Program-made: the position numbers and the translations under genes | Notes under the pieces: generated by a model | Databases searched by the model: none | What the model was told of the DNA's origin: nothing | Seen by the model: the letters and a program-made list of their open reading frames with translations, nothing else | In this document: positions 45,232 through 64,000 of the stretch, in pieces | Numbering within the stretch: the first letter of the stretch is position 1 | How the letters are laid out: each line of letters begins with the position of its first letter | Assembly: GCA_966211105.1 (NCBI GenBank) | Contig: CBIHMU010000014.1 | Coordinates: forward strand, 18,032 to 82,031 | Direction of reading: 5' to 3' | DNA: 64,000 bases | Source: an uncultured Burkholderiales bacterium | GTDB lineage: Bacteria > Pseudomonadota > Gammaproteobacteria > Burkholderiales > Burkholderiaceae_C

Positions 45232-45573
45232 TTACATCCAGGCCACGCCGTAGTAGTCGTAGACCTTGCGGCCGTATTCATCGGAGTACTCGGGACGGTC
45301 GGTCTGCGCATAGCGCGGCGCCTTCTCGAGCTGGTCCTCGCGCAGCGGCACGACATAGCCGTCCAGGCTGGTGTCGTACTTCAGCATGTTCCAGGGAATC
45401 GGATACCGGTCGGTGCCGATGCCCATGAATCCGCCGAACTCGAGGGCCGCGTAACGGACCAGGCCAGAGCGCTTGTCGATGACGAGGTTGTCGATCGAGC
45501 CGAGCTTGTCGCCGTTGCCGTTGTAGACCTTGGTGCCTTCGACGCGGTCGGAAGCGATGGTGGTGCTTGCCAT
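45232..45573 (-). CDS. PRC-barrel domain protein
   Basis: VEGTKVYN..GDKLGSI..LVIDKRSG..YAALEFGGFMGIG..PIPW. Confidence 0.9.
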   Translation of the reverse strand: MASTTIASDRVEGTKVYNGNGDKLGSIDNLVIDKRSGLVRYAALEFGGFMGIGTDRYPIPWNMLKYDTSLDGYVVPLREDQLEKAPRYAQTDRPEYSDEYGRKVYDYYGVAWM

Positions 45574-45609
45574 GAGGGTCTCCTGGTGGGTTGGGATAAG
45601 AGCTTCCAG

Positions 45610-45624
45610 GCAATCGCCGTGCCG
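45610..45624 (-). promoter_or_regulatory. Sigma-54 -24/-12 promoter (PRC-barrel gene)
   Basis: CGGCACGGCGATTGC(C), 37 bp upstream of ATG. Confidence 0.75.
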
Positions 45625-45660
45625 CCGTCGACGTTGTCGGCACGCGTCGTCGGCTCACGT

Positions 45661-45705
45661 CTTCCGCACGCCTCTTCCGCACGCCTCTTCCGCAGGCCTC
45701 TTCCG
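45661..45705. repeat. 13-bp tandem repeat (~3.5 copies)
   Basis: CTTCCGCACGCCT x2, CTTCCGCAGGCCT, CTTCCG. Confidence 0.85.
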
Positions 45706-45799
45706 AAAACAGGCGGCGGGCGGGACTTTCCCTTGCCTCGACAAAGAAAATCCCTGCCCCTTCCGTTTCCCCCGCCGCGCCTGTCCGCGGCCACCTCGC

Positions 45800-46714
45800 A
45801 TGCCCAAGCTGCCCCACGCCGTCCAGGAAGCCATCGACATCGTCAGCGAGGCCGCGCAGAGCTGGAGCGACGACAACGCGCCCAGCATGGGCGCGGCGCT
45901 GGCCTACTACACGCTGTTCTCGATCGCGCCGCTGCTGCTGATCGTCATCAGCGTGGCGGGCCTGGTGTTCGGCGAGCAGGCCGCGCGCGGCGAGGTCATG
46001 GAGCAGCTCTCCGGCCTGCTCGGCACCGACGGCGCCATGGCGGTGGAGGACCTGCTCAAGCGCGTCAACCGGCCGGAAGAGGGCGGCTGGGCCGCCGCGA
46101 TCGGCACGGTCGTGCTGCTGGTGGGCGCGACCTCGGTGTTCGCCGAGCTGCAGAACTCGCTGAACCGGATCTGGAAGGCGCCGACGGCACCCAGCGCGCC
46201 GGTCTGGCAGGGCCTGGTGACCTTGCTGCGCAAGCGTCTGCTGTCGCTGGGCCTGATCCTCGGCCTGGGCTTCCTGTCGATGATCTCGATGGTGGCCAGC
46301 GCCGCGCTCGCCGCGATCAGCAAGTGGTGGACGCCGTGGCTGGGCACCGAGTTCGTCCTGCTCGCCCAGATCCTGAACGGCACGCTGGCCTATGCGCTGA
46401 TCACCGTGATGTTCGCCGTCATCTACAAGTGGGTGCCCGACGTCCCCGTGCGCTGGCGCGACGTCTGGGTCGGCGCGCTGATCACCTCGGCGCTGTTCAG
46501 CCTGGGCAAGACCTTGATCGGCCTGTACATCGGCCGCAGCGGCGTGAGCTCCGCCTACGGCGCCGCGGCGTCGCTGGTCGTGATGATGCTGTGGGTCTAC
46601 TACTCGACGCAGGTGTTCCTGATGGGCGCCGAACTCAGCTGGGCCTTCGCCAAGCGCCACAGCCTGCGGGAGCAGGCCGTCGCGACCGTGGCGCGGACGC
46701 TCGGGCCGCACTGA
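45800..46714 (+). CDS. YihY/BrkB family membrane protein
   Basis: MGAALAYYTLFSIAP, ATSVFAELQNSLNRIW, YGAAASLVV. Confidence 0.88.
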   Translation: MPKLPHAVQEAIDIVSEAAQSWSDDNAPSMGAALAYYTLFSIAPLLLIVISVAGLVFGEQAARGEVMEQLSGLLGTDGAMAVEDLLKRVNRPEEGGWAAAIGTVVLLVGATSVFAELQNSLNRIWKAPTAPSAPVWQGLVTLLRKRLLSLGLILGLGFLSMISMVASAALAAISKWWTPWLGTEFVLLAQILNGTLAYALITVMFAVIYKWVPDVPVRWRDVWVGALITSALFSLGKTLIGLYIGRSGVSSAYGAAASLVVMMLWVYYSTQVFLMGAELSWAFAKRHSLREQAVATVARTLGPH

Positions 46715-46776
46715 CGCACCCGTGAGACGCTAGCGGACGATCACCCGGCAGCCCGCACCGATCCTCGTTTTTCGTC

Positions 46777-46791
46777 CGGCATGTCGCTTGC
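46777..46791 (+). promoter_or_regulatory. Sigma-54 promoter (GT9-like gene)
   Basis: CGGCATGTCGCTTGC(C); ATG is 13 bp after the -12 C. Confidence 0.7.
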
Positions 46792-46803
46792 CGGCAAAGC
46801 GCC

Positions 46804-47877
46804 ATGATCGCGACGTCCCTCGAGCAGCGCGCCCCTGCGCCCAGCCTTCCCGAGCTGGAAGCGGCGAGCGCGCCCCTGCGCGACGGGCCGCTGCCCGTCG
46901 ACGCGCACGCGCTGGCCGAGGAGCGCCATCGCCGCTGGTGCAACGTGCGCCGCGTGCTGTTGATCCGGCTGGACGGTGTCGCGGGCGTGCTGGCGTCGAC
47001 GGCGTCGTTCGCGGCGGTGCACGAGACGATGCCGTGGACGCAGCTGACCCTGCTGGCGGCGCCCGAGGCGCTCGCGCTGCGGCCGCATCTGCAGGCGGTG
47101 GACGACGTCATGACCTTCAACGCGCCGTGGACCGCCGCCGGCGCCGCCGTGCTGAACGCCGAACCGCCGAGCATGCGCGGCGACGCCGAGATGCACCTGG
47201 TGCGCAAGCTGCGCCGCAGCCACTTCGACGCCGCGGTGCTGTTCACCGCCGCCGCGCAGAGCGCGCTGCCTGCCGCGGTGCTGTGCCGCATGGCGGGCAT
47301 TCCGCTGACGCTGGCCCATGTGCGCGAGCCGGCCCACGGCCTGCTCAGCGATGAACTCCTGGTCGGCGATGAACGGGCCGACGACGGCCAGGACGACACG
47401 CGCCGCCAGCTGGCGCTGGTGGCGCATGTCGGCATGCACACCGCCGACGAACGACCGCGCCTGCGGCTGCTGCCCAAGGACAGCCACCACATGCGGAACG
47501 TCTTGCAGCAAGCCGGCTTGCGCTTTGGTCAGCGCTACGTGCTGGTCTGTCCGGGCGGCGGCGCCAGGCGGCACTGCCCGCCCGCGGTCTTCGCGGCCGC
47601 GGCGGACGTGTTGCTCGACGCCTGGGCCGACGACACGGCCGTGGTGCTGTGCGCGGTGCCCGGCGAGGAGGCGGCCCTGGCCGAACTTCGCGCGGCCATG
47701 CCGTCGCGGGGGCAGGTCTTGCCTCCGGTCGCGTCGATCGGGGAGTTGGCCGCCCTGGCCGCCGGCGCCCGCGTGGTCGTGGCCACAGACGATCTGCCCC
47801 TGACCATCGCGGCCGCCTCCCGCGTGCCGGCGGTGCTGCCCGGCGATGCGTTGCGCCGGGAGATGAACATCGGCTGA
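46804..47877 (+). CDS. GT9 (heptosyltransferase-like) family protein, apparently degenerate
   Basis: RRVLLIRLD, FDAAVLFT..QSALPAA..AGIPL, YVLVCPG; catalytic GD and DxGxxH motifs altered. Confidence 0.75.
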   Translation: MIATSLEQRAPAPSLPELEAASAPLRDGPLPVDAHALAEERHRRWCNVRRVLLIRLDGVAGVLASTASFAAVHETMPWTQLTLLAAPEALALRPHLQAVDDVMTFNAPWTAAGAAVLNAEPPSMRGDAEMHLVRKLRRSHFDAAVLFTAAAQSALPAAVLCRMAGIPLTLAHVREPAHGLLSDELLVGDERADDGQDDTRRQLALVAHVGMHTADERPRLRLLPKDSHHMRNVLQQAGLRFGQRYVLVCPGGGARRHCPPAVFAAAADVLLDAWADDTAVVLCAVPGEEAALAELRAAMPSRGQVLPPVASIGELAALAAGARVVVATDDLPLTIAAASRVPAVLPGDALRREMNIG

Positions 47878-47984: not shown

Positions 47985-47999
47985 GGGCACGGTGCTTGC
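47985..47999 (+). promoter_or_regulatory. Sigma-54 promoter (small secreted protein)
   Basis: GGGCACGGTGCTTGC(C), 92 bp upstream of ATG. Confidence 0.7.
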
Positions 48000-48090: not shown

Positions 48091-48438
48091 ATGCACCTGC
48101 ACAAGCTCGCCTGGGCGATGCCGCTGTTGCTGGCCGCCAGCGCGGCCCACGCGGAGAGCTCCGGCAGTTTCCTGGAGGGTGCCAAGCTCGCGGCGCTGGT
48201 CCGTCCGGAGGCCGCGGGCCCGGCGAACGGCCCTGTCCACCACGCTCCCGCTGGCGTCCGGTCTGTCCCGCAGGGCCAGACGCCGTCGGCGACCGCCTCT
48301 CCGCCGGCGAGTCCGTCCTCCGTCACCGACACGGACATCGAGCCCTCCGGGGCGTCGTTCGAGATCCGCAACTTCTTCACCCTGGTCGTCGCACTGGCCT
48401 TGGTGGGATGGGTCCAGCGCCGCCGCCGGGATGCGTGA
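48091..48438 (+). CDS. Small exported Pro/Ser/Thr-rich protein with PEP-CTERM-like C-terminal anchor
   Basis: AGGAGG RBS; signal peptide ending AHA; C-terminus TLVVALALVGWVQRRRRDA. Confidence 0.65.
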   Translation: MHLHKLAWAMPLLLAASAAHAESSGSFLEGAKLAALVRPEAAGPANGPVHHAPAGVRSVPQGQTPSATASPPASPSSVTDTDIEPSGASFEIRNFFTLVVALALVGWVQRRRRDA

Positions 48439-48725: not shown

Positions 48726-50222
<1,497 letters not shown>

Positions 50223-50246: not shown

Positions 50247-50261
50247 TGGCATGCGGCCTGC
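50247..50261 (+). promoter_or_regulatory. Sigma-54 promoter (topoisomerase IB)
   Basis: TGGCATGCGGCCTGC(C), 25 bp upstream of ATG, with AGGAGG between. Confidence 0.7.
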
Positions 50262-50285: not shown

Positions 50286-51464
50286 ATGCCACTGCGTTGG
50301 GTATCCGATTGCGAACCCGGGCTGCGCCGCAAGCGCGCCGCCAAGGGTTTCCGTTATGTCGATGGCGACGGGCGTCCCGTGCGGGACGCCGCGACACTGC
50401 AGCGCATCCGCGCGCTGGCGATTCCGCCGGCCTACGAGGACGTCTGGATCTGCGCCCGCGACGACGGTCACATCCAGGCGACCGCCCGCGACGCGCGCGG
50501 ACGCAAGCAATACCGCTATCACGCCGACTGGATGGCCCTGCGCGGCGAGAACAAGTTCGGCCTGCTGCTGGACTTCGGCCAACGACTGCCACGCCTGCGT
50601 CGCCAGGTGCAGCGCCGGCTGCGCCCGGACGGCGCCGGCGGCAACGTCGACCGTGAACGCGTCATCGCGGCGCTGGTGCGTCTGCTCGACCGCACCTGGA
50701 TGCGCATCGGCCATCGCGAATACGCGCGCAGCAACGGCTCCTACGGCCTCAGCACCCTGCTGTGCCGGCATGTGAAAGTCAGGGGCGACGCGCTGCTGCT
50801 GAGCTTTCCCGGCAAGAGCGGCGTGCGCCATCAGCTCGCGGTGCGTGACGACCGCGTTGCGGCGCTGGTGCGCCGCTGCCGCGATCTCCCCGGCCAGGAA
50901 CTCTTCGGCTATGAGGACGATGCCGGCGACCCGCACCGCATCGACGCCTCCGACGTCAACGACTGGCTGGCCACCGCCGGCGGACCGACCTGCAGCGCCA
51001 AGGTGTTCCGCACCTGGCATGCGAGCGTGCTCGCGCTCGATCTGCTGTCGGACCATGCCCGCGCTGGCACGGCGCCGGCCGAGGCGTTGAAGCAGACGGT
51101 GAAGGACGTCGCCGCGCGACTCGGCAACACCGTGGCGGTCTGCCGCAAGTCCTACATCCACCCGGCCGTGCTGGCGTTTGGCCAGTCCGACCAGTTGGCG
51201 TCCTTGCCGACGCAGCGCTGGATGGCCGCGCCGCCGGCGGTTGCCGGATTGAACACCGCGGAGCGGCGCCTGATGGGACTGCTGCGGACGCAGCCCCGCG
51301 TGGAGGTGGCTACGCCGGCGCCTGCGCCTGAGCCGTCACCGACGAAGCCATCGCGGTCGAGGACAGGCGGCTCATCGGCTCGTCGAGCGGCGCGTCCATC
51401 GCTACCGAAGTCCCCGCCGCCGCCTCGCGCAGCAGGTGCTCGGCCAGCGACGGCCAGTCGCTGA
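50286..51464 (+). CDS. Bacterial DNA topoisomerase IB
   Basis: IPPAYEDVWI, GHIQATARDARGRKQYRY, FPGKSG, AKVFRTW, LGNT..VCRKSYIHP (catalytic Tyr). Confidence 0.92.
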   Translation: MPLRWVSDCEPGLRRKRAAKGFRYVDGDGRPVRDAATLQRIRALAIPPAYEDVWICARDDGHIQATARDARGRKQYRYHADWMALRGENKFGLLLDFGQRLPRLRRQVQRRLRPDGAGGNVDRERVIAALVRLLDRTWMRIGHREYARSNGSYGLSTLLCRHVKVRGDALLLSFPGKSGVRHQLAVRDDRVAALVRRCRDLPGQELFGYEDDAGDPHRIDASDVNDWLATAGGPTCSAKVFRTWHASVLALDLLSDHARAGTAPAEALKQTVKDVAARLGNTVAVCRKSYIHPAVLAFGQSDQLASLPTQRWMAAPPAVAGLNTAERRLMGLLRTQPRVEVATPAPAPEPSPTKPSRSRTGGSSARRAARPSLPKSPPPPRAAGARPATASR

Positions 51465-52065
51465 AGACGCCGGCCGGCTCGCGCAGCGGCGATCGCCGCC
51501 AGGCGGTTTCCGCGCCGGTGTCGAGCAGCAGCCCCGTCGCGCCGGCGCGGTGGCCCGCCTCGACGTCGTCGAGCAGATCGCCCACCATCCACGAGCGGCC
51601 CAGGTCAAGGCCGTGCGCGCGCGCCGCGCGCGTCAGCATGCCGGGCGCCGGCTTGCGACACAGGCACGCCGGACGTCCTTGCGCGTCGGGCGCATGCGGG
51701 CAGACCGCCACGTCGGTCAAGGCCACGCCGAACTCGTCCTTCAGGCGCGCCAGCAGCGCCGCTTGCAGCCGCGCGAACTGGACACGCGTGAACGCGCCGC
51801 GCGCGATGCCGCTTTCGTTGGTGACCAGGACCAGGGCCAGTCCCGCGGCGCTCAGCCGCGCGAGCGCCTCGCCCGCGCCGGGCATCAGGCGCACGCGGGA
51901 CGGATCATGGATGGCCGCGTCGTCCGGCACCACCAGCGTGCCGTCCTTGTCGAGGAAGACCGCCGGACGCAGCGACCCCGGCGACGGCCGGTCGGGCCGC
52001 TCGCGGGAAAAGTCGAGGTCGTGGAGGGAGAGGGTGGTGAGCGGCGCGTCGAGCCAGGCAGTCAC
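51310..52065 (-). CDS. HAD-IIIA phosphatase, GmhB (heptose-1,7-bisphosphate phosphatase)-like
   Basis: FLDKDGTL, VTNESG, CPH...CLCRKPAPGM, MVGDLLDDVEAG. Confidence 0.85.
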   Translation of the reverse strand: MTAWLDAPLTTLSLHDLDFSRERPDRPSPGSLRPAVFLDKDGTLVVPDDAAIHDPSRVRLMPGAGEALARLSAAGLALVLVTNESGIARGAFTRVQFARLQAALLARLKDEFGVALTDVAVCPHAPDAQGRPACLCRKPAPGMLTRAARAHGLDLGRSWMVGDLLDDVEAGHRAGATGLLLDTGAETAWRRSPLREPAGVFSDWPSLAEHLLREAAAGTSVAMDAPLDEPMSRLSSTAMASSVTAQAQAPA

Positions 52066-52086: not shown

Positions 52087-52620
52087 TCAGCGCACCCAAC
52101 CGTAGTCGGTCTGGCGCGGCGCCAGCGACTGTTTGTGCCGCGCCATCAGGCCCGACTCCCGTCTCGCGCCGTCGGCGGCCGGATCGATCATCGTGCCGGT
52201 CTGAAGCCCGCCGCCCTGCAGATCGGCCGCGTCGGCCGGCCGCGCGCCGCGCGGCGGCGGCAGCAGCTCGGCCAGGCGGGCCAGCGTCTTGCGCACGTCC
52301 AGCGGCTTGGCCCACAGCTCCAGGAAGCCGCAGCCCAGCGCGTCGAAATCGGAATCGGCCGTCACCGCGATCGCCGGCACCTGCGCCCAGCCGCGCCGCA
52401 TGCGCAGCAGCTTCAGCAGGTCGGAGCCGTGGCAGTCGGGCAGGTGCAGGTCGATCAGCAGCAGCGACGGCTGCAACTGGGCGCTGAGCCGCCAGGCGGG
52501 CATGCCAGCCTCGGCGACGTGCAGGCGCAAGTCACGGCGTTGCTCGAACATCGCCTCCATCACGATGACGTTGAGCGGGCTGTCTTCGACGTACAGCACC
52601 GACGTGAAACCGTCGTTCAT
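52087..52620 (-). CDS. Single-domain response regulator
   Basis: LYVEDSPLN, LLLIDLHLPD, AVTA, KPLD. Confidence 0.85.
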   Translation of the reverse strand: MNDGFTSVLYVEDSPLNVIVMEAMFEQRRDLRLHVAEAGMPAWRLSAQLQPSLLLIDLHLPDCHGSDLLKLLRMRRGWAQVPAIAVTADSDFDALGCGFLELWAKPLDVRKTLARLAELLPPPRGARPADAADLQGGGLQTGTMIDPAADGARRESGLMARHKQSLAPRQTDYGWVR

Positions 52621-52664: not shown

Positions 52665-52679
52665 GCAATCGCCGTGCCT
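52665..52679 (-). promoter_or_regulatory. Sigma-54 promoter (receiver / HAD operon)
   Basis: AGGCACGGCGATTGC(C), 45 bp upstream of ATG; 14 of 15 nt identical to the 45610 site. Confidence 0.75.
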
Positions 52680-52835
52680 GAAGCGCTCCCCAACCCTGGG
52701 GATTCCACTGCCTGGCACAGGATGATTCGGCCTCACCGGTGTAACCGGTCGGTGGCCCGCGCGTCAATCTCGGTGACACCTTGGTGGGTCTTCTTTTCCG
52801 GTCGGTTCGCGTGTGGGAAAGACGGCGGACGCGAT

Positions 52836-52850
52836 AGGTATGAGGCTTGC
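52836..52850 (+). promoter_or_regulatory. Sigma-54 promoter (hypothetical gene at 52891)
   Basis: AGGTATGAGGCTTGC(C), 41 bp upstream of ATG. Confidence 0.6.
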
Positions 52851-52890: not shown

Positions 52891-53427
52891 ATGGCCACAA
52901 GCATCCGACCCGGCGCCCCGGACGCCCCGGACGACGCCAACGACAGTCCCGGCAGTGCCCCTGCCGAGGACCGCCCCAGCAGTTTCGGCGTGCACAAGCC
53001 GGTGGACCATCTGGTGATCAGCTTCCCCGGCGCGCCGGAGGCCGGGCAGGCCCGTGCGGCGCTGAGCGCGCACGGCATCGCCGAGGCGGACCTCCACGCG
53101 ATCGGCGACCGCGAGATGATCGACCTGGTCGAGCGCGACCTGAAGCGCGCCAGTCCGCTGGCGGCGATCGGGCAGGAGATCAACCTGCTGCGCAGCCACG
53201 GCGAACTGGCCGAACGCGGCTTCCACTTCCTCGTCGTCAAGGCCAAGGATGATGCGCAGGCGCGCGAGATCGCCGAGATCGCCCGCCGCAACCATGCCGA
53301 GCGCGCCCAGTACTACGGTCACTTCATCATCGAGGAGATGCTGGAGCCCGAAGGCGGCCGCCCGCAGGTGTCCGAGTCGCCGCACCGCGGCCTCGACACC
53401 CATCCGAAACCGCCGCTGCCGCGCTGA
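52891..53427 (+). CDS. Conserved hypothetical protein
   Basis: AAGGAG RBS; coherent ORF (FGVHKPVDHLVISF...AQYYGHFIIEEM). Confidence 0.75.
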   Translation: MATSIRPGAPDAPDDANDSPGSAPAEDRPSSFGVHKPVDHLVISFPGAPEAGQARAALSAHGIAEADLHAIGDREMIDLVERDLKRASPLAAIGQEINLLRSHGELAERGFHFLVVKAKDDAQAREIAEIARRNHAERAQYYGHFIIEEMLEPEGGRPQVSESPHRGLDTHPKPPLPR

Positions 53428-53480
53428 ACGGACGCATGCGGCCTCCCGAGCGTCGATCGTCGGTGCCCCCCTTGCCTCCG

Positions 53481-53495
53481 GGGCACGCCGCTTGC
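53481..53495 (+). promoter_or_regulatory. Sigma-54 promoter (elaB/yqjE/yqjK-like operon)
   Basis: GGGCACGCCGCTTGC(C), 63 bp upstream of ATG. Confidence 0.75.
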
Positions 53496-53557: not shown

Positions 53558-53935
53558 ATGAGCACCACGCCCAACAACGAGAAGAGCGACAAGTCCGTGC
53601 CGTTCACCACCGCCGAAGATGCCGCCAAGCTGGTCAACGGCACCAGCGCGTCCGGCACGCCGTCGAGCACCGCGGCCGCCGATCTGGTGAACCGCGTCGC
53701 CGACAAGGCGCACGCCACGATCGACCGCCTCGCGACCACTGCCGCCCCGAAGGCGCAGCAATTGCAGAAAAGCCTGGAGGACACGAACGAGCTGCTGCAG
53801 GACCGTGCCGAGCGGCTGCGCCTGACCGGCAACGAGTGGTGCGACACCCTGCGCTCGAACGTGCGCGAACATCCGCTGATGGCGGTCGGCACCGCGCTGG
53901 CGGTCGGCCTGCTGATCGCGCGTCTGACGCGCTGA
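53558..53935 (+). CDS. DUF883 / ElaB-YqjD-like tail-anchored protein
   Basis: VREHPLMAVGTALAVGLLIARLTR C-terminus. Confidence 0.85.
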   Translation: MSTTPNNEKSDKSVPFTTAEDAAKLVNGTSASGTPSSTAAADLVNRVADKAHATIDRLATTAAPKAQQLQKSLEDTNELLQDRAERLRLTGNEWCDTLRSNVREHPLMAVGTALAVGLLIARLTR

Positions 53936-53948
53936 CCGCGGCGCGCCC

Positions 53949-55635: not shown

Positions 55636-55650
55636 GCAAGTCACGTACCC
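55636..55650 (-). promoter_or_regulatory. Sigma-54 promoter (PA2169-like gene)
   Basis: GGGTACGTGACTTGC(T), 43 bp upstream of ATG; overlaps the kinase stop codon. Confidence 0.65.
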
Positions 55651-58055
55651 GTCGGCAAGCCCATCGCGCGCCGCAGCGCTTCCAGGATCTGCGACGGCGA
55701 CGCGGGCTTGCGCAGCACGGTGAAGGAGGACTCCGCCGTCAGCGCCTCGCTGAAGCCGCTGATCAGCACGATGGGCAGTCCGGCCCGTCGCTTGCGCAGC
55801 TCGCGGGCCAGCGCCTGGCCGTCCATGGAGCCCGGCATCACCACGTCCGACAGCACGATGTCCACCGCCGCGCCGCTGCCGAAGAGCTGCAGCGCCTCGT
55901 CCGCGTCCTTGGCGCTGAGCACCTGGCAGGAGAAGCTGCGCAGCAGGCCGGCGGTGACGCGGTTGAGTTCCTCGTTGTCCTCGACCAGCAGCACGCGCAT
56001 GCCCGCCAGGCTGTTGGTGAGACCGTCGTCGCGCGTGCGCTCGCGCTCGGTGCCGTCGACGCGCGCGCCGTCGGGCACGAGACGCGCGCTGGTCTGCGCG
56101 GGCAGCAGCAGCGTCACCGTCGTGCCCGCGCCGAGCTGGCTCGCGATGCGCGCGGTGCCGCCCGCCTGCACGCAGAAGCCCAGCACCTGGCTCAGGCCCA
56201 GGCCGGTGCCCTTGCCGACGGGCTTGGTGGTGAAGAAGGGTTCGAAGACGCGCGCCAGCAGGTCGTCGGGAATGCCCGGTCCGCGGTCGGTCACGCTGAT
56301 CGCGACGTACTCGCCCGGCGCGAGGTCCTGCACGTCGCCGGGAGAGGCGCGGCCGGCCTCCACGGTGATCTCGCCCATGCCGTTGGTCGCGTCGCGCGCA
56401 TTGAGCGCGATGTTGATCAGCGCGAGCTCCAGCTCCGACGGATCCACGCGCACGCTCGGCAGGTCCGGCGCCATCGTCATCGCGAGCTGCATGCGCTTGC
56501 CCAGCACGGTGACGAGCAGCTCCTTCATCTCGCCGAGCGTCGAGCGCAGGTCCACGACCTGCGGATGGACCGGCTGGCGGCCCGCGACCCGCAGCAGGTG
56601 CTGGGTCAGCCGGCTGCCGACGTCGACCGACCGCATGATCGCGCCCAGCGGCATGGCCAGCGATTCGGCGTGCGGGCTGCGCTGGATCAGGTGGGCGCTG
56701 TTGCTGATGACGCCCAGCAGGTTGTTGAAGTCGTGCGCGACGCCGCCGGTGAGCCGGCCCAGCGCGGCCGTGCGCTGCGAGCGCGAGCTGAGCTGCTCGG
56801 CCTCGCGCGTGCGGTCGATGGCTTCGTTCACCCGTTCCTCGAGCTCGTAGCGACCCTGATGGATCGCGGCGCTCGCGTCCTCGAGCGCGAGCGCGACCTC
56901 GTCGCATTCGACCATGCCGGTCTTGCGCGCACGCACCGGCTCGCCGGCGCGCAGTTCGTTGGCGATCTCGTTGAGCGCGTGGATCGGTCCGGAGATGCGC
57001 CGGCTGATCCACAGCGCGCCGAACATGCCGACCAGCACCAGCAGCAGCGCGCCGATCGCGATGGGCTGCAGCGCGGCGCGCGCGCCGAAGCCGCTGAATC
57101 CGCCGGGGCCGCCGTCGCGCGGCACTGCGGTCACCACCGTCCAGCCCTGCGGCGACTTGCTGAAGTAGCCGACGACCGGGCGGCCGTCCAGGTTGACCGA
57201 GTCGAACTGCGCCTCGTCGTGCGTGGCCATGAGGCTTTTGAGGTCCTCGGTGCCGGGACGCCCCGCATAGCTGATGCCGCCCGGATGCCGCGCCACGACC
57301 GTGCCACGGCCGTCCATGATCGTCGCGGTCCAGTCCGGCGGGAGGCGCTGCCCGTCGATGATCTGCTGCAGCTCCTGCGGCAGCACGGTGATGCTCATGT
57401 TCAGCCACACATGGCCGCCGCGTTCGATCGGCTGGATGATCTGCGCGCGCAACTGGCCGGTGGCGGGGTCGGGCGCGAGGTCGCCCATGATGGCCTGCTC
57501 GGCCAGCGGCACGCCTTCGCGGACCAGGACCGGGCGGGAGGCGGCGGTGGTCGGCAGACCCGGCGGCACTGTCGCGGTGGGGGCGGTGGCGGCGGTGCCG
57601 ATGGTCGCCCCGGGCGACGGCAGCGCGGAGACCGGAGACGAGGGCGCCGCGGAGGCCGCCGCCGCAGGCGGTACCAGCGACGTCACCGGCACGCGGCCCG
57701 GCGCGAGCCGGGTGCTGAACAGCGTGCGGTCCGGCGCGTTGAGTTCCACCCAGCCGGACAGGCCCTGCATCGCGCGACGCGACTGCAGCTCCAGCATCGC
57801 GAGGTCGTCCGGCGCGATCTGCGGCGATCCGTCCAGGATCTGCGACAGGGACAGCACCCGCGCGATGCCGGCGCGACGCGCCAGTTCCTTGTCCACCACC
57901 ATGGACAGCGCGCGCGTGCTGTCGCGCATATGGCGCACGGTGGCGTCGCGCTCGTCGCTCCAGGTCTGCCAGCTGACCCACAGCGCCGCGATGATGCCCG
58001 GCAACATCACGGACAGGACGAGCACGAGCAGACGGGAACGGATCGGCAGAGGCAT
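55641..58055 (-). CDS. Hybrid sensor histidine kinase (periplasmic Cache-like domain, HisKA, HATPase, REC)
   Basis: TM-periplasm-TM; GVAHDFNNLL, NIALNARDA, DRGPGI, FFTTK..GKGTGLGL, LSDVVMPG. Confidence 0.9.
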   Translation of the reverse strand: MPLPIRSRLLVLVLSVMLPGIIAALWVSWQTWSDERDATVRHMRDSTRALSMVVDKELARRAGIARVLSLSQILDGSPQIAPDDLAMLELQSRRAMQGLSGWVELNAPDRTLFSTRLAPGRVPVTSLVPPAAAASAAPSSPVSALPSPGATIGTAATAPTATVPPGLPTTAASRPVLVREGVPLAEQAIMGDLAPDPATGQLRAQIIQPIERGGHVWLNMSITVLPQELQQIIDGQRLPPDWTATIMDGRGTVVARHPGGISYAGRPGTEDLKSLMATHDEAQFDSVNLDGRPVVGYFSKSPQGWTVVTAVPRDGGPGGFSGFGARAALQPIAIGALLLVLVGMFGALWISRRISGPIHALNEIANELRAGEPVRARKTGMVECDEVALALEDASAAIHQGRYELEERVNEAIDRTREAEQLSSRSQRTAALGRLTGGVAHDFNNLLGVISNSAHLIQRSPHAESLAMPLGAIMRSVDVGSRLTQHLLRVAGRQPVHPQVVDLRSTLGEMKELLVTVLGKRMQLAMTMAPDLPSVRVDPSELELALINIALNARDATNGMGEITVEAGRASPGDVQDLAPGEYVAISVTDRGPGIPDDLLARVFEPFFTTKPVGKGTGLGLSQVLGFCVQAGGTARIASQLGAGTTVTLLLPAQTSARLVPDGARVDGTERERTRDDGLTNSLAGMRVLLVEDNEELNRVTAGLLRSFSCQVLSAKDADEALQLFGSGAAVDIVLSDVVMPGSMDGQALARELRKRRAGLPIVLISGFSEALTAESSFTVLRKPASPSQILEALRRAMGLPTGT

Positions 58056-58149
58056 GGGCGGAGAAACGGAGGAACGGGCGGGCCGCCACCGCGGCCAGAG
58101 GCCGGCGGCGCGGACAGGGACGCCGGGGCGCGGGCGTCGCGGCGGCAGA

Positions 58150-59370
58150 TTATGGGTGGTGCTGTTCAAGGGCGTTCGGACGCGCCACCACGGGGGTGGC
58201 GCCATCGGCAGGCGGCAGGGGGCTGTGCGGAGCGACGAGCGGGGGGACGTGCGGCGCGAGGGACGGCGGCCGGGGCGGCCGCAACAGTGTGCTCAACGGC
58301 GTGCACGGGCGGTCGCTGCCGCGCAGGTACACGGCGACCGGACGCATCTGGCGGTTGCGCTGGCTGATGCTGCGCAGGCAGATGAGCAGCGGCACCGCCA
58401 GCACCGCGCCGACGACGCCCCAGAGCCAGCCCCAGAACATCACCGACAGCAGGACCGACAGCGGATTCATCGACAGCTGCTTGCCGATCACCATCGGGGT
58501 CACGAAGTTCGACTCGATCGCGTGGATGCAGAGGTAGGACAGCACCGGCGCGGCCAGCGCGGCGAAGCCCGCGTCGCCGAGCGAGGCCGCCAGCGACGCC
58601 GCCAGCAGCAGCCCGCACATGATCAGGGGGCCGAGGTAGGGGATGAAGTTGAACAGCGCGGCCAGCGCGCCCCAGAAGCCGGGGTTGGGCAGGTCCACGA
58701 ACCACATCGTGCCCGACACCACCAGGCCGACGCCGATGTTGATCAGACTCACGGAGCCGACGTAGCGCGAGATGTCGCGCTGCGCGGCGCGCAGGCCACC
58801 GAGCACGACGGCGCGCAGGCGCGGTCGATGCGGCAGCAGCTCGATGCAGCGCGACAGCACCCAGTGTTCGGACGCGAGCAGGAAGTACAGCAGGATGGTG
58901 GTCGCGGCGGTGGACACCAGGAATTTCAGGCCGATGCCCAGCGCCTGGGCCGTCAGCGCCACGCCCTCGCTGGCGATGCGCTCGCGCACGGGATCCGCGG
59001 GCGGCGTCGGAGCCGCGGCGCGACCCGAGGTCCGCCGTTCCACCGGCGGCCCGAAACCCGGGATCGCCGCGCGCCACCGGTCCACCTGGCTCAAGGCCTG
59101 CGACACCGCCACCGGCGCACGTTGCCACCACTGCGCCAGCGGATCCACCAGCAGCGCCGCGCTCAGCACCGTGCAACCGACCACCGTCGTCACCAGCATA
59201 GCCGCGCTCACCGACTCGGGTATGCCGTGATGGCGCATCGTCCGCACCGCCGGCGCCAGCACGAAGGTCAGGATCAGCGCCACCAGCACCGGCAGCACGA
59301 TGGCACTGGCTTCCTTCAACAGGAACACCAGCGCAATCAAGAGCAGGCCTCGCGTCGCCCAGCGGCGCAT
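58150..59370 (-). CDS. AI-2E family transporter (start may be TTG at 59400)
   Basis: LPVLVALILTFVLAP, FWGALAALFNFIPYLG, ESNFVTPMVIG, WGWLWGVVGAVLAVP. Confidence 0.88.
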   Translation of the reverse strand: MRRWATRGLLLIALVFLLKEASAIVLPVLVALILTFVLAPAVRTMRHHGIPESVSAAMLVTTVVGCTVLSAALLVDPLAQWWQRAPVAVSQALSQVDRWRAAIPGFGPPVERRTSGRAAAPTPPADPVRERIASEGVALTAQALGIGLKFLVSTAATTILLYFLLASEHWVLSRCIELLPHRPRLRAVVLGGLRAAQRDISRYVGSVSLINIGVGLVVSGTMWFVDLPNPGFWGALAALFNFIPYLGPLIMCGLLLAASLAASLGDAGFAALAAPVLSYLCIHAIESNFVTPMVIGKQLSMNPLSVLLSVMFWGWLWGVVGAVLAVPLLICLRSISQRNRQMRPVAVYLRGSDRPCTPLSTLLRPPRPPSLAPHVPPLVAPHSPLPPADGATPVVARPNALEQHHP

Positions 59371-59443: not shown

Positions 59444-59458
59444 GCAAGGGCTGGGCCA
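59444..59458 (-). promoter_or_regulatory. Sigma-54 promoter (AI-2E gene)
   Basis: TGGCCCAGCCCTTGC(T). Confidence 0.6.
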
Positions 59459-59633: not shown

Positions 59634-59872
59634 GAGCGGGCATGCGGAGGCTGCCGCTCGGTAAAAGGTGCCGAAAGCCTTGCGGGGCGGACGGGCCGCG
59701 GCGTGGTCCGAGGGGGGCGGGTCGGGCGAAGCGGTGGCCGGGCGGCGTCTGTAGGTGCGCCGCGGGACGATGGGTCCATCGCCCGGCAGGCCCCGTGCCT
59801 ACAGGGATTGCGGCTTTCGGGCAGGCACGCCGAATGGCGCGCGCTCCGCGATATGAAAACGCCGCGGCGAGG

Positions 59873-59887
59873 TGGCATGGTCCTTGC
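59873..59887 (+). promoter_or_regulatory. Sigma-54 promoter upstream of the rpoN paralog
   Basis: TGGCATGGTCCTTGC, near-perfect consensus, 134 bp upstream of ATG. Confidence 0.75.
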
Positions 59888-60020: not shown

Positions 60021-61424
60021 ATGGAACTCAGGCACGAGCATCGGCAGACACAGACGCTGTCGCCTCGGCTCCAGCACGCCGTGCGGCTGCTGCAGATGTC
60101 CTCGCTGGACTTCACCACCATGGTCACCGACATGCTGGGGCGCAACCCCTTCCTGGAAGTGACCGAGTCGTCGGACGATTCGTCGCCGCTGGAATCGGAG
60201 ATGCCGGTCGCACCGTCGCCGGTGATGTCGGACGCGCCGGAACCCTTCCCGGACGACCGCGAGATCTGGCGTGCGGAGAGCTCCGGCTCGATGCGCCGCG
60301 CGGAGGACGGCGAACTGAGCGCGCTGGAGATGACCGCCGCGCAGACCTGCCTGCGCGAACACCTGCGCAGCCAGCTGAACGTGCTGCGGCTGTCGCCGCG
60401 CGACCTGGTGCTGGCGACGATCGTGGCCGAGTCGGTCGACGACGACGGCTACCTGCGCAGCTCGCTGGAGGAGCTGGCGGTGGTCGCGCAGATGCAGCCG
60501 CCGGTGGGCATCGACGAGATGCAGATCGCGCTCAAGCGCGTGCAGGCGCTGGATCCGCTGGGCGTGGGCGCGCGCAGCGTGGCCGAATGCCTGCTGCTGC
60601 AGCTGCCCAAGATCGAGGACACGCGCAGCCGCCTGCTGGCCGAGCGCATCATCTCGCAGCACTTGAACCTGCTGGCCTCGCGCGACATCCCGTCGCTGGC
60701 GCAGCTGCTGGACGTGAGCGTGGCGGAAGCCGAGGCCGTGTGCCTGAAGCTGCGCCGCTTCGACCCGCGGCCGGGCTGGCGCTACGAGACGACGCAGGCC
60801 GCCTACATCGTGCCGGACGTGCTGACGACCAAGGTGCGCGGCCAATGGCGCGTGCAGCTGAATCCGGCGGTGATCCCGAAGGTGCGGATGAACCAGGTGT
60901 ACGCGGAACTGTTCCAGCGCCACCGCCAGCAAGGTCATGCGGAAATGGCCAACCACCTGCAGGAGGCCCGCTGGACGATGCGCAACATCGAGCAGCGCTT
61001 CTCGACCATCCTGGACGTGGCCAACGCGATCGTGAAGCGGCAGCGCCACTTCCTCGAGTTCGGCGCGATGGCGATGAAGCCGCTGGGCCTGAAGGAGATC
61101 GCCGACGAGGTCGGCATCCATGAATCGACGGTCTCGCGCGTGACCAACAACAAGTACCTCGCGACGCCGAGCGGCGTGTACGAACTGAAGTACTTCTTCT
61201 CGCGCGCGATCGTGAGCAGCAACGGCAGCGCGTGCTCGGGCACCGCGATCCGCGGACTGATCAAGGACATCATCGAGGCCGAGCGCGCGGAGAACCCGCT
61301 GTCCGACGCCGAGATCACCCGTCAGCTCGCCCGCCAGGGCCTGGTGGTGGCTCGCCGCACGGTGACCAAGTACCGCCAGATGCTGCGCATCGACGCCGTC
61401 GAACGGCGCAGACAGCACAGCTGA
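60021..61424 (+). CDS. rpoN: RNA polymerase sigma-54 factor, paralog outside the usual lptB-rpoN-hpf context
   Basis: Region I LQHAVRLLQM, NPFLE, GVGARSVAECL, HESTVSRVT, RpoN box ARRTVTKYR. Confidence 0.95.
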   Translation: MELRHEHRQTQTLSPRLQHAVRLLQMSSLDFTTMVTDMLGRNPFLEVTESSDDSSPLESEMPVAPSPVMSDAPEPFPDDREIWRAESSGSMRRAEDGELSALEMTAAQTCLREHLRSQLNVLRLSPRDLVLATIVAESVDDDGYLRSSLEELAVVAQMQPPVGIDEMQIALKRVQALDPLGVGARSVAECLLLQLPKIEDTRSRLLAERIISQHLNLLASRDIPSLAQLLDVSVAEAEAVCLKLRRFDPRPGWRYETTQAAYIVPDVLTTKVRGQWRVQLNPAVIPKVRMNQVYAELFQRHRQQGHAEMANHLQEARWTMRNIEQRFSTILDVANAIVKRQRHFLEFGAMAMKPLGLKEIADEVGIHESTVSRVTNNKYLATPSGVYELKYFFSRAIVSSNGSACSGTAIRGLIKDIIEAERAENPLSDAEITRQLARQGLVVARRTVTKYRQMLRIDAVERRRQHS

Positions 61425-61458
61425 CGACCCGTTTTCCCGAGGCGCGATGGAGACAAGG

Positions 61459-61484: not shown

Positions 61485-61552
61485 ATTGGCGGGTTCAGTG
61501 GCGGCTTCAGTGGCGCCGGCGCAGGGCAGGGGCGCCGCGCCGCCGGCGGGGA

Positions 61553-61939
61553 TCAGTGGTCGGACGAGCGCTTCATCGGGCTGGAGGACTTGGTGTCGTC
61601 CTTGACCATCCGGCCGCGCTGTTCGGCGTCCAGTCCCGGTGTCGATCGCAGGTCGGTGTCGACCTGGCCCTGCTTGAGGTCCTCATGGGCCTGGCCGATG
61701 ACCTCGCGCTGATTCTCACCGGCCGCGCCGGAGCCCATGCCGCCGGTCGAGTCGCCGCCGATGCTCTGATCGCGCTCGTGCGGCAGCTGCGCGTCGTCGT
61801 CGTGGGTGGGCGCTGCGTCGGGCTCGACCTGTCCCGGCGCGACGGGCGACTTGTCGAGCACGGGCCGCGAGCCCGGCGTTTGTGCGGGGCGATCGGTCTT
61901 GGGGGCGGGGGTGCTGGCCATGGCGAGTTCCTGATTCAT
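61553..61939 (-). CDS. Small hydrophilic hypothetical protein (LPHERDQS...GQVDTD motif)
   Basis: Coherent ORF, probably disordered; weak upstream sigma-54-like site GGGTGGGCCGATTGC(C) at 61957-61971. Confidence 0.65.
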   Translation of the reverse strand: MNQELAMASTPAPKTDRPAQTPGSRPVLDKSPVAPGQVEPDAAPTHDDDAQLPHERDQSIGGDSTGGMGSGAAGENQREVIGQAHEDLKQGQVDTDLRSTPGLDAEQRGRMVKDDTKSSSPMKRSSDH

Positions 61940-62061
61940 TGAGATCCCCGGTTGAGGCAATCGGCCCACCCGCGCCGACCGGCGAACCGGCCGGCCGACA
62001 TCACCGCACCAAACGTCGCGCGGCGCCACTGACATCCTCCTTGTTCACCTGACATCCCGCC

Positions 62062-62937
62062 ATGCTGACCCTGCCCGCCTCCTTGATCACGCCGTCGAAC
62101 AGCCCACTGGATGACCTGTTCGCCGCGAAGGAAGACCACGGTCCCGGACACCGCGAAGGTCCGGAGGACGACGCCTTCGAGGCCTGCCAGAACGGCAGGC
62201 TGCCGCCCGGCGGTCTGGCCCACCTCGTCCGCGAGGGCGCGGCGCGGCACGAGAGCCGGGCCGCTCTGAGTGACGGCCTGGAAGAGGTGCTGTCCCATTT
62301 CACCAGGCAGAAGCAGCACCGGGCCGGCATGGCGGCGCACCTCTGCCTTCGCGCCAGTGAGCTGGGTCCGGAGCTTCGACAGGATCCGTGGCGGGACGCG
62401 AGCCACGCCCGGCCGCTGCTGAAGGCGGCCGCCACCTTGTCGCGGTGTCTCGACGCGCAGGCCCCGTGGCGGCTGATCCAACTCCAGTTGCAGGAAGACA
62501 GCCCGCAATACCGGCACGAGGCGCTTCGCCGACGCCTCGCGCGCATCGATGAGATGTCGACCACCATCGATCGCGAGCTGGCCGATCCCGGCATCGACCC
62601 CGCCCATCCGGGACCGCTGAGCTCGCAGGTGCTGGAGGCGTTGACCCACCGGACGGAGGCGGTGGCGGAGCGGATGGGGGCGCTCCTCGCCGCAGCGAGC
62701 AACCTGTTGTCGCTGGCGGACCTGCGCGGTCCGCGCGCCGCGCCGCTGCTGACTGCGCTGTCGGACTACGAAGACATCGTTGCCAAGGCGAGCGAGCGCG
62801 CGAGGCGCGACGGGCACTCCGATGCGATCGCCATGCGGATCGCCCGATACGATGGCCTGGGGGCCGAAGTCCTGCGATTGCCCCACCAGATGTCGGTCGT
62901 GCGCGACGCACTGCTGGGCAGGGGCTGGCGGGGGTGA
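62062..62937 (+). CDS. Hypothetical helical protein
   Basis: 291-aa ORF filling the gap; no family recognised. Confidence 0.55.
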   Translation: MLTLPASLITPSNSPLDDLFAAKEDHGPGHREGPEDDAFEACQNGRLPPGGLAHLVREGAARHESRAALSDGLEEVLSHFTRQKQHRAGMAAHLCLRASELGPELRQDPWRDASHARPLLKAAATLSRCLDAQAPWRLIQLQLQEDSPQYRHEALRRRLARIDEMSTTIDRELADPGIDPAHPGPLSSQVLEALTHRTEAVAERMGALLAAASNLLSLADLRGPRAAPLLTALSDYEDIVAKASERARRDGHSDAIAMRIARYDGLGAEVLRLPHQMSVVRDALLGRGWRG

Positions 62938-62949
62938 CGCGCAGCGCGC

Positions 62950-62964
62950 CGGAACGGCGCTTGC
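62950..62964 (+). promoter_or_regulatory. Sigma-54 promoter (MscS gene)
   Basis: CGGAACGGCGCTTGC(C); ATG is 13 bp after the -12 C. Confidence 0.6.
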
Positions 62965-62976
62965 CCGCCCGGCGCC

Positions 62977-64000
62977 ATGCAGACCTGGAAATCCCGTTTC
63001 GCGATCCTCGATACCGACCTCATGCTCTGGGGTCAGTTGTTGCTCGGCGCCTTGGTGATCATCGCCGGCGCGCTGCTCCTGCATGCGATCCTGCGGCCGA
63101 TCGCCGTGCGCCTCACGCGTTTCTCACCGCTGCTGAGTTCGGTGGTGAAGCGCTGCGACAACCCGGCCCGGTGGGCCTTGCCGACGATCGGGCTGCTGAT
63201 CGCCGCGCAGGGCGTGCCGGACACGATGCCGGGCATCAACGGCGTGCAGCATCTGCTGGGCGTGTTGTGCATCGTCGCGCTGGCCGCCGTCGCGGCCGGC
63301 GCGATCACGGGCGTGGCGCACGGTGTGGCGCTGATGAATCCTGCGGACGTCGAGGACAACCTCGCCGCGCGCCGCATCCAGACGCAGACCAAGGTGCTGG
63401 CCCGCGTCGCCAAGGGGGCGGTGATGCTGACCGCGCTGGCCTTCATCCTGATGACTTTCCCGCGCGCCAAGCAGGTCGGCGCCAGCCTGCTGGCCTCGGC
63501 GGGCATCGCCGGACTGGTCTTCGGCCTGGCGGCGAAGTCCGTGTTCGGCAACCTGCTCGCCGGTCTGCAGATCGCCATGGCGCAACCGATCCGGCTCGAC
63601 GACGTGCTCATCATCCAGGGCGAATGGGGCCGGGTGGAGGAAATCACCTCGACCTACGTGGTGCTCAAGATCTGGGACGAACGCCGGCTGGTGATCCCGC
63701 TTCAATGGTTCATCGAGAACCCGTTCCAGAACTGGACGCGCACCAGCTCCAGCATCCTCGGCACGGTGATGCTGTGGGTCGACTTCACGCTGCCGGTCAA
63801 TGAGCTGCGCGAGAAGGCCACCATCATGTGCAAGGGCTCGGCGCATTGGGACGGGCGGGTCTGCGGCGTCCAGGTCGTGGAAACCACCGAACGCACCATG
63901 CAGATCCGCGTGCTCGTCAGCGCGAAAGACTCGGGCAAGGCCTTCGACCTGCGCTGCGAGTTGCGCGAAGGTCTGATCGCCTGGCTGCAGAAGACGCACC
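62977..64000 (+). CDS. MscS-family mechanosensitive channel (runs off the window end)
   Basis: LLASAGIAGLVFGLAA, NLLAGLQI..QPIRLDDV, WGRVEEITSTYVV, FQNWTR. Confidence 0.9.
   Translation, partial: MQTWKSRFAILDTDLMLWGQLLLGALVIIAGALLLHAILRPIAVRLTRFSPLLSSVVKRCDNPARWALPTIGLLIAAQGVPDTMPGINGVQHLLGVLCIVALAAVAAGAITGVAHGVALMNPADVEDNLAARRIQTQTKVLARVAKGAVMLTALAFILMTFPRAKQVGASLLASAGIAGLVFGLAAKSVFGNLLAGLQIAMAQPIRLDDVLIIQGEWGRVEEITSTYVVLKIWDERRLVIPLQWFIENPFQNWTRTSSSILGTVMLWVDFTLPVNELREKATIMCKGSAHWDGRVCGVQVVETTERTMQIRVLVSAKDSGKAFDLRCELREGLIAWLQKTH

Follow-up and report, generated by a model that had tools for sequence, protein, structure and literature searches.

A candidate sigma-54 stress/survival regulon around a second rpoN gene in Roseateles

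What does a second sigma-54 factor do when its gene lies among genes of the general-stress type? The question is raised by a 64 000-nucleotide stretch of DNA from a Burkholderiales bacterium (positions 18032–82031 of contig C14 in a genome of 6.12 Mb and 197 contigs; hereafter the window), the last 19 kb of which (the island) encode a paralogue of the sigma-54 factor RpoN, a bacterial enhancer-binding protein (bEBP) with a GAFTGA motif, a hybrid sensor kinase and a free receiver protein. All four had been named in an earlier account made from the letters of the window alone (the sequence-only reading) and all four were recovered by Pfam searches and inspection of the sequence. That account proposed that a general-stress gene set is wired here to a dedicated sigma-54 factor and its bEBP in a self-contained regulon. 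The proposal holds in kind, in that both the unit and its promoters are conserved, and fails as to self-containment: a further promoter (window-equivalent position 67737, minus strand) and a trehalose-6-phosphate synthase gene of family GT20 lie past the end of the window, so that the island extends beyond the window, predicted sites are scattered over the genome and the promoter of the rpoN paralogue is itself of the canonical class. We conclude from the sequence comparisons, with a probability of roughly two in three, that the region is the core of a sigma-54 stress/survival regulon under a specialized RpoN (RpoN2) and a linked NtrC-type activator.

The RpoN2 unit and its conserved promoters

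The rpoN2 gene (60021–61424, plus strand) encodes a protein of 467 residues that belongs to the sigma-54 family, with all three Pfam domains, Sigma54_AID (3.4e-11), CBD (1.5e-52) and DBD (4.1e-58), and the RpoN box ARRTVTKYR; its ATG at 60021 was set from the position of the AID domain and the translation. The protein is 100% identical to that of a Roseateles sp. metagenome-assembled genome and 97% identical to those of R. chitinivorans and R. noduli, and the source is therefore taken to be a Roseateles (formerly Mitsuaria; Sphaerotilaceae, Burkholderiales). The gene is without housekeeping context, lying between an AI-2E family transporter gene and a gene at 61553–61939 and not beside lptA or lptB. 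The other of the two rpoN genes of the genome, on contig C82, is the housekeeping copy (rpoN1) and is located 3' of an LptA-like gene and of a gene for an ABC ATPase with an LptB-type C-terminal motif. An intact rpoS was also found by a profile search of the genome (393.5 bits compared with the TIGR02394 cut-off of 378.7), so that the two genes whose presence the sequence-only reading had proposed to check, rpoS and a second, lptB-linked rpoN, are both there. The RpoN2 programme has not replaced RpoS; both are encoded and would operate in parallel. In a quick maximum-likelihood tree 47 RpoN2 sequences, that of the window among them, form a clade (SH-aLRT 100) apart from the RpoN1 of the same genome.

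The activator gene (48726–50222, plus strand) encodes an N-terminal receiver domain (REC) with its Asp in the motif LLDLQLPD, a Sigma54_activat domain (4.7e-68) with GAFTGA at residue 216 and a C-terminal HTH_8 domain, the features of a bEBP of the NtrC class. The genome encodes 14 bEBPs, without a close paralogue of this activator among them, and an orthologue (57–72% identity) lies within 10 kb of rpoN2 at 19 of 45 loci from other genera. The hybrid kinase (ORF, open reading frame, 55641–58205, minus strand; likely true start near 58055) contains HisKA, HATPase and REC domains identified by Pfam, and hydropathy places two transmembrane helices around a periplasmic domain of ∼300 residues; homologues were found at 14 of the 45 loci. 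The free receiver is a REC-only protein (52087–52620, minus strand; Pfam 8.4e-13).

The strict -24/-12 motif GG[CT]A[CT]-N5-TTGC occurs eight times in the window, always within its last 19 kb (45.6–59.9 kb), compared with 1.29 ± 1.05 occurrences (maximum 4) in 100 dinucleotide shuffles. Over its 6.12 Mb the genome holds 170 strict matches, an average of 0.53 per 19 kb, and its densest 20-kb cluster is the island with eight, followed by a runner-up with four. The density is thus well above chance. The 12 GG-N10-GC sites that the sequence-only reading listed are all present where it placed them, the four beyond the strict set deviating in one element each, and its claim of correct orientation was borne out, since after correction of start codons every one of the 12 faces a start 12–134 nt downstream. 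Two sites can be added to the 12, one at 59786–59799 on the minus strand and the one at window-equivalent 67737.

Conservation was followed over 80 related loci, comprising L006–L064 with RpoN2 (50–100% identity) and L065–L085 with canonical RpoN (42–45%); the RpoN2 loci come from Roseateles, Pelomonas, Aquabacterium, Piscinibacter, Ideonella, Rubrivivax, Hydrogenophaga, Delftia, Comamonas, Ramlibacter and Variovorax. RpoN2 loci carry 4–12 strict motifs per 20 kb, compared with about one at canonical rpoN loci, and at 55–57 loci, including the Ralstonia megaplasmid and Comamonadaceae plasmid copies, a strict motif lies 90–170 nt upstream of rpoN2. The ORFs found 3' of the motifs other than those before rpoN2 fall into clusters. 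Homologues in the window represent the clusters REC/hybrid kinase (28 sites), DUF883 (16), the family of the gene at 52891 (15 loci, Delftia among them), DUF2383 (11), a membrane protein at 67177 (eight), PRC-barrel (five) and MscS (three to four); 13 of the motifs precede hybrid kinases and 14 loci have a promoter before an orthologue of the REC-only gene. Clusters without a member in the window were assigned by Pfam to BON, Hemerythrin, Transgly_assoc (YmgE/GlsB), CsbD, KGG, Pyrid_ox_like (GSP26-type), CBS and an outer-membrane β-barrel, while YdaD-like SDR and PLD-like clusters were recognized by eye only. When the AI-2E/rpoN2 intergenic regions of six Roseateles species are aligned, the mean identity is only 52%, with every column identical in the rpoN2 promoter and in an element at 59785–59799. 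The synteny comparison thus finds rpoN2, bEBP, kinase and receiver to be a conserved unit, and the motifs to be kept ahead of orthologous genes in more than ten genera of Sphaerotilaceae and Comamonadaceae.

The genome scan that the sequence-only reading had called for was carried out with a position weight matrix (PWM) trained on 180 sites from other genera only, and gave 73 sites scoring at least 16, of which 61 are non-coding and 12 coding, seven of the 73 being in the island. Outside the island, 58 of 64 non-coding sites scoring at least 15 have a co-oriented ORF within 300 nt. Scattered predicted targets with a family confirmed by Pfam include Sod_Cu, DJ-1/PfpI, DUF3309, a Gly-zipper_YMGG lipoprotein, DUF326, a YdaD-like SDR, an Mpo1-like protein and OmpA; glucose-6-phosphate dehydrogenase (zwf), glutaredoxin, pyrroloquinoline quinone (PQQ) glucose dehydrogenase and four REC-only proteins were recognized by eye only. 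Since classical sigma-54 targets such as ureA are among the matches, not every one of them belongs to this regulon.

These results bear on the simplest alternative, that the motifs are chance or compositional matches without promoter function. GG-N10-GC is very common at 70% G+C and four of the 12 island sites are weak or degenerate, as such an explanation would have it. It is nevertheless extremely improbable, and we reject it: none of the 100 shuffles reached the observed count, every site is oriented toward a gene, high-scoring matches are non-coding by 5:1, motifs recur ahead of orthologous genes in different genera and the rpoN2 promoter has stayed unchanged in intergenic DNA that has otherwise diverged.

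Two promoter classes and their probable sigma factors

The conserved sites are of two kinds. Target promoters read VGGCAYG-N4-TTGCC, and rpoN2 promoters read TGGCAYG-N4-TTGC[G/A] and resemble classical RpoN1 promoters. Over 249 unique target sites the base after the GC is C in 82%, T in 14%, A in 3% and G in 1%, and T precedes the -24 GG in 5%; the 52 unique sites upstream of rpoN2 have G after the GC in 67%, A in 31% and C in 2%, with T before the GG in 58%. Five promoters beside other bEBPs of this genome (those of glnA, a livH-like permease, a Ro/rtc-like operon, an ABC binding protein and one other) have T, A, G, A and A after the GC, with C in none of the five and T before the GG in four. 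C follows the GC in ten of the 14 island sites, and with the target PWM the rpoN2 promoter scores 10.2 compared with 15.8–22.5 for island targets. The promoters assigned to the two paralogues thus differ at defined positions, as a matter of statistics. The RpoN2 clade has fixed changes in the helix–turn–helix (SRVTTAKY to SRVTNNKY) and in the RpoN box (ARRTVAKYR to ARRTVTKYR), and six in region I; together with the split between promoter classes, these fit a sigma-54 cascade. Since the promoter of rpoN2 is of the canonical class, rpoN2 probably depends on RpoN1, which suggests the order RpoN1, rpoN2, stress genes, and we infer that the TTGCC-class promoters are read specifically by RpoN2.

Genuine promoters of this class might instead be read by RpoN1, or by either sigma-54 factor, with RpoN2 only adding sigma-54 capacity under stress and the TTGCC flavour coming from the activator or from local composition rather than from sigma specificity. 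We regard this as unlikely. RpoN1 may be able to read TTGCC promoters, and C after the GC is not known to block sigma-54 binding. Some genomes that lack RpoN2 have many GGCAYG-N4-TTGCC matches: counts in 22 genomes do not separate carriers of RpoN2 from non-carriers, and one genome (G154) has 41 matches with neither RpoN2 nor an orthologue of the bEBP. The raw count is, though, uninformative because it is confounded by composition and coding sequence, and of the 21 G154 matches that were inspected most lie inside long coding-like ORFs (RNA polymerase beta-prime-like and NuoF-like by eye) and none precedes a homologue of the ∼330 candidate target proteins. On C4-dicarboxylates, a plasmid-borne rpoN2 of Ralstonia gives partial complementation of an rpoN1 mutant (PMC4676750), which also speaks for overlapping capacities. 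Against such overlap stand the sharpness of the split (C in 82% of targets and 2% of rpoN2 promoters, over more than ten genera), the absence of C from all five promoters beside other bEBPs and the substitutions that the RpoN2 clade has fixed in both DNA-reading elements. In the single informative case the DUF2383 homologue has a sigma-54 motif in G109 and none in G280, which lacks RpoN2; in G197 (no RpoN2) and G239 (with RpoN2) the homologue is fused into a longer ORF.

A different order of events would have rpoN2 chiefly autoregulated, in a positive feedback that may amount to a bistable switch, and not under RpoN1. The rpoN2 promoter (TGGCATGGTCCTTGCG, 59874–59887, plus strand) is a strict site of the canonical class, with T before the GG and G after the GC. 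The invariant element (GGCAGGCCCCGTGCC, 59785–59799) lies ∼85 bp upstream of it; read on the minus strand (59786–59799) it is GGCACGGGGCCTGCC, which has one mismatch to the motif and a PWM score of 11.7, so that it could be either an inverted-repeat enhancer or a GGCACGGGGCCTGCC promoter on the minus strand. Autoregulation would account for the near-universal sigma-54 promoter before rpoN2 (55–57 loci), and the linked activator could serve that promoter through the invariant element. The rpoN2 promoter is, on the other hand, off the target class at two discriminating positions (PWM 10.2 compared with 16–22), a pure auto-loop needs a primer and rpoN2 expression in Ralstonia requires rpoN1 (PMC4371752). 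We therefore hold autoregulation without the cascade to be distinctly improbable and continue with RpoN1 as the factor that most likely transcribes rpoN2.

Besides the degenerate sites, the RpoN2-less genomes and the possible reading of TTGCC promoters by RpoN1 already given, several observations weigh against our assignment of the region to a specialized RpoN2 regulon. A histidine phosphotransfer (Hpt) domain that would link the hybrid kinase to the activator was not found. Nor did enrichment of palindromic 5-mer dyads (spacers of 0–14 nt) and 6–8-mers in 109–205 upstream regions over 907 intergenic controls yield a shared upstream activator site; it returned fragments of the promoter motif, parts of Shine–Dalgarno sequences from divergent genes and a single dyad, CCGGT-N3-ACCGG, which is present in 14 of 205 upstream regions compared with 0.34 expected and whose recurrence probably reflects orthologous copies of a single intergenic region. 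In the quick tree, which did not include Burkholderia RpoN2, the Ralstonia RpoN2 forms a long branch between the RpoN2 and RpoN1 clades, sharing the region I and YFFSR changes of the RpoN2 clade. The promoters local to the Ralstonia locus are few and end in TTGCA/T and not in TTGCC, and a Ralstonia rpoN2 mutant has no metabolic or virulence phenotype (PMC4676750). Finally, because rpoS is present, the inducing cue may be narrower than general stress.

Genes and promoters of the island

Genes were called by third-position G+C, which the high G+C of the DNA recommends, followed by a Pfam scan of the ORFs, and several starts of longest ORFs were shifted after inspection. The G+C is 0.65–0.73 over the whole window with no compositional break at the island, and no integrase gene is present among the ORFs scanned with Pfam from 45.2 kb to the end of the contig; a mobile or foreign origin of the island was considered on these grounds and is not indicated.

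The left part of the island begins with a PRC-barrel gene (45232–45573, minus strand; Pfam) served by the strict promoter GGCACGGCGATTGCC (45610–45623, minus strand). At ∼45655–45700 on the minus strand, 30–75 nt upstream of its -24 element, are three direct repeats of TGCGGAAGAGGCG, the third being TGCGGAAGACGTG, which could be a regulator-binding array. A membrane protein of the BrkB/YihY family follows (ORF 45530–46714, plus strand; Pfam 1.7e-54), with its domain from ∼45869 and its true start downstream of 45623; homologues are present at 11 loci of other genera and at the Ralstonia rpoN2 locus. The GT9-like gene (46804–47877, plus strand; Pfam) has the strict promoter GGCATGTCGCTTGCC (46778–46791, plus strand; PWM 19.9) only 12 nt before its ATG, and its transcript is probably leaderless. 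The strict promoter GGCACGGTGCTTGCC (47986–47999, plus strand; PWM 18.5) precedes a gene for a small secreted protein (48091–48438, plus strand), and transcription from it possibly continues into the bEBP gene. Topoisomerase IB (50286–51464, plus strand; Pfam) has a weaker promoter, GGCATGCGGCCTGCC (50248–50261, plus strand), with CTGC at -12; its Aquabacterium orthologue is preceded by a strict motif. The topoisomerase ORF converges with that of a HAD hydrolase (51310–52065, minus strand; Pfam), with an overlap of ∼155 nt as called (51310–51464), and the 3' end of one gene or the other may have been called wrongly.

The REC-only gene has the highest-scoring promoter of the island, a strict GGCACGGCGATTGCC at 52665–52678 (minus strand; PWM 22.5), with 45 nt from the GC to the ATG and a Shine–Dalgarno sequence GGAGC. 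Divergent from it is the strict promoter GGTATGAGGCTTGCC (52837–52850, plus strand) of a conserved gene without known function (52891–53427, plus strand). Between the two, in 52700–52790, lies the palindrome CCGGTTACACCGG (CCGGT-N3-ACCGG), which may be an operator or enhancer limited to this pair of genes. Elsewhere in the genome a second small module occupies C38:37605–41684, where a bEBP gene at C38:40137 lies beside another REC-only gene, whose REC N-terminus is like the receiver of the island activator; that REC-only gene is preceded by a TTGCC-class site and a nearby livH-like gene by a classical TGGCAC...TTGCA promoter.

The DUF883-like gene (53558–53935, plus strand) matches DUF883_C at 25.8 bits, slightly below the 27-bit cut-off, and is preceded by the strict promoter GGCACGCCGCTTGCC (53482–53495, plus strand); two genes for small proteins follow it (53949–54488 and 54472–55014, plus strand). 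A degenerate -24/-12-like motif, GGTGCCCCCCTTGCC (53462–53475, plus strand), is located 20 nt upstream of this promoter, and GCTTGCC is enriched across upstream regions in general, a hint of tandem or overlapping promoters. The DUF2383/PA2169 gene (corrected ORF 55135–55593, minus strand; Pfam 1.8e-40) has its strict promoter GGTACGTGACTTGCT (55636–55649, minus strand) inside the 3' end of the kinase gene. The AI-2E family transporter (58150–59370, minus strand; Pfam 5.6e-40) probably heads an operon that includes the kinase gene. The promoter of this operon, TGGCCCAGCCCTTGCT (59444–59457, minus strand), is weak, with GGCCC at -24, T before the GG and T after the GC; the form TGGC[CG]C-N5-TTGCT is kept in five of six Roseateles species, and this promoter is perhaps also read by RpoN1.

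To the right of rpoN2, two genes without known function, one of them at 61553–61939, lie before MscS. The weak site GGTGGGCCGATTGCC (61957–61970, minus strand), with GGTGG, precedes the 61553–61939 gene, the Ralstonia homologue of which has the upstream motif TGGCACGGCGGTTGCA. MscS (62977–64098, plus strand; Pfam) runs past the end of the window and has a weaker site, GGAACGGCGCTTGCC (62951–62964, plus strand), with GGAAC, 12 nt before its ATG at 62977; strict motifs lie 11–13 nt before its orthologues in three Roseateles relatives and in Comamonas. Beyond the window, the GGCACGGCGATTGCC promoter at window-equivalent 67737 (minus strand) precedes a membrane protein and then a transmembrane-anchored GT20 trehalose-6-phosphate synthase (otsA; Pfam 8.7e-120).

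Over 250 unique sites the distance from GC to start codon has two modes, a sharp peak at 12 nt (11 sites, flanked by six at 11 nt and five at 13 nt) and a broad one at 34–55 nt. Starts in the sharp peak are mostly ATG without a Shine–Dalgarno sequence, and the MscS spacing of 11–13 nt is kept across five species (the related loci L015–L017 and L058 show the short class). It is the 12-nt peak without Shine–Dalgarno sequences that suggests leaderless sigma-54 transcripts from promoters of this class.

A mixture of PRC-barrel, DUF883/ElaB, CsbD, KGG, YmgE, hemerythrin and GSP26-like proteins is typical of the multi-stress regulons of SigB, RpoS and EcfG, and Pfam-identified families of multi-stress protection are found among both the island genes and the predicted targets. 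The repertoire can also be given a tighter interpretation, in which the regulon responds to a single narrow cue, for instance hyperosmotic or desiccation stress, or damage to the envelope that the kinase detects with its periplasmic domain, and RpoS keeps general and stationary-phase protection. An intact rpoS, the large periplasmic domain of the kinase and the osmotic and envelope genes (MscS, GT20, BON, Gly-zipper lipoproteins, DUF883, AI-2E, BrkB) would suit a cue of this kind, while oxidative, redox and DNA-topology targets (Sod_Cu, DJ-1, SDRs and topoisomerase IB, with zwf and glutaredoxin by eye) and the CsbD, KGG, YmgE, hemerythrin and GSP26-like mixture, found as such in multi-stress regulons, would not. 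We hold a single narrow cue to be less likely than not.

Proposed mechanism, known systems and implications

The components can be assembled into a model. The membrane-bound hybrid kinase would sense an envelope or periplasmic cue and, directly or via the free receiver, would control phosphorylation of the receiver domain of the activator. The rpoN2 gene would be transcribed from TGGCAYG-N4-TTGC[G/A], most likely by RpoN1 holoenzyme, and the invariant element ∼85 bp upstream may act as the enhancer of its promoter. RpoN2 holoenzyme, remodelled by the ATPase of the activator, would then fire the VGGCAYG-N4-TTGCC promoters, ∼10 in the island and ∼50–60 elsewhere, which would serve small membrane and periplasmic stress proteins, MscS, trehalose-6-phosphate synthase, Cu/Zn-SOD, DJ-1, SDRs, topoisomerase IB and receivers, in a programme parallel to that of RpoS. 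The comparisons above give good support to the regulon as such; the signal that induces it, the cascade and the specificity of the sigma factors we infer. A broader generalization can be offered tentatively, its odds being somewhat short of even: RpoN2 of the Sphaerotilaceae and Comamonadaceae would have its own promoter dialect (no T before the -24 GG, C after the -12 GC), matched by the fixed changes in its helix–turn–helix and RpoN box, and, placed below RpoN1 and working with one activator on at least 60 promoters, would run a second general stress response, part of it leaderless (e.g. mscS).

Among the closest known systems is RpoN2 of Ralstonia solanacearum (RSp1671, with the bEBPs RSp1667/1668). 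It is likewise from the Burkholderiales, and its locus shares a sigma-54 promoter before rpoN2, BrkB/YihY, a hybrid kinase, activators 51% identical to that of the island and a homologue of the 61553–61939 gene with a sigma-54 promoter; it differs in its 43% identity, its position between the clades, its canonical RpoN box and its TTGCA/T promoters. The megaplasmid locus that we examined (L086; CP049790.1, 1994593–2020199) contains BrkB/YihY, DUF1328, two sigma-54 activators, a hybrid kinase and the 61553–61939 homologue with its own sigma-54 motif, and has an integrase gene at its edge. The rpoN2 of R. solanacearum has been found to have a sigma-54 promoter and to need rpoN1 (PMC4371752), and RpoN1 and RpoN2 of Ralstonia are not interchangeable (PMC4676750). 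The Ralstonia rpoN2 papers give its function as unknown (PMC4371752, PMC4676750), and the word 'stress' is absent from PMC4676750. In B. pseudomallei, rpoN2 on chromosome 2 is needed for katE at 48–72 h and not for nitrogen use (PMC4745423). This RpoN2 is thus similar in being dispensable for nitrogen and amino-acid use and required for a stationary-phase oxidative gene, katE, with an RpoN box; it differs in having a single documented target, with no island, activator or promoter class described.

Cognate pairs of sigma-54 factors and activators are known from Rhodobacter (Cereibacter) sphaeroides, where the modules are RpoN1–NifA, RpoN2–FleQ/FleT and RpoN3 with its own activator (Poggio 2002, 2006, via PMC3162934; PMC11999139), and RpoN1 and RpoN2 promoters are described as differing at -11 (Poggio 2006, via PMC3162934). 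The likeness lies in several rpoN copies that have cognate activators and are not interchangeable, and in the reported discrimination at the base adjoining the -12 GC, the position at which C stands against A, G or T in the two classes described here. R. sphaeroides is unlike the present case in being alphaproteobacterial and in having nitrogen fixation and flagella, not stress genes, under its modules, and the specificity proposed for the island comes from sequence statistics only. In Bradyrhizobium sp. DOA9 a plasmid-borne RpoNp is reported to influence stress-adaptation genes and not core nitrogen functions (PMC13207237), but it is alphaproteobacterial and carried on a megaplasmid, with modest effects only in a double mutant and no promoter island or distinct promoter class reported. 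The repertoire itself (CsbD, KGG/YciG, YmgE/GlsB, BON/OsmY, DUF883/ElaB, PRC-barrel, DUF2383, GSP26-like, YdaD-like SDR, SodC, OtsA and MscS) is that of the RpoS (Gammaproteobacteria), SigB (Bacillota) and EcfG–PhyR (Alphaproteobacteria) regulons, whereas those depend on sigma-70-family factors and on proteolysis or partner switching, and the system described here on sigma-54, an ATP-dependent activator and two-component input.

A full-text literature search returned nothing on a second sigma-54 factor in Roseateles, Delftia, Variovorax, Acidovorax or Comamonas and no sigma-54-driven general-stress gene set in Burkholderiales. The sequence-only reading had stated that it did not know of such a system having been characterized; we too found no publication on it, and a sigma-54 paralogue with its activator wired to stress-type genes appears to be undescribed.

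Specialized duplicates of sigma-54 have been described in connection with flagella and nitrogen fixation, and the RpoN2 of Burkholderiales has so far been without a function. The locus and its relatives give it a testable assignment, suggesting a survival/stress programme for which the sigma factor, its activator, a sensor kinase and a promoter signature can be named, in carriers that include the genetically tractable Delftia, Variovorax, Comamonas and Roseateles/Mitsuaria. If the promoter dialect is specific to RpoN2, it would show how two sigma-54 holoenzymes are insulated from each other in one cell, and it would place genes of the general-stress type under a switch that depends on ATP and works all-or-none, in place of a sigma-70-family factor.

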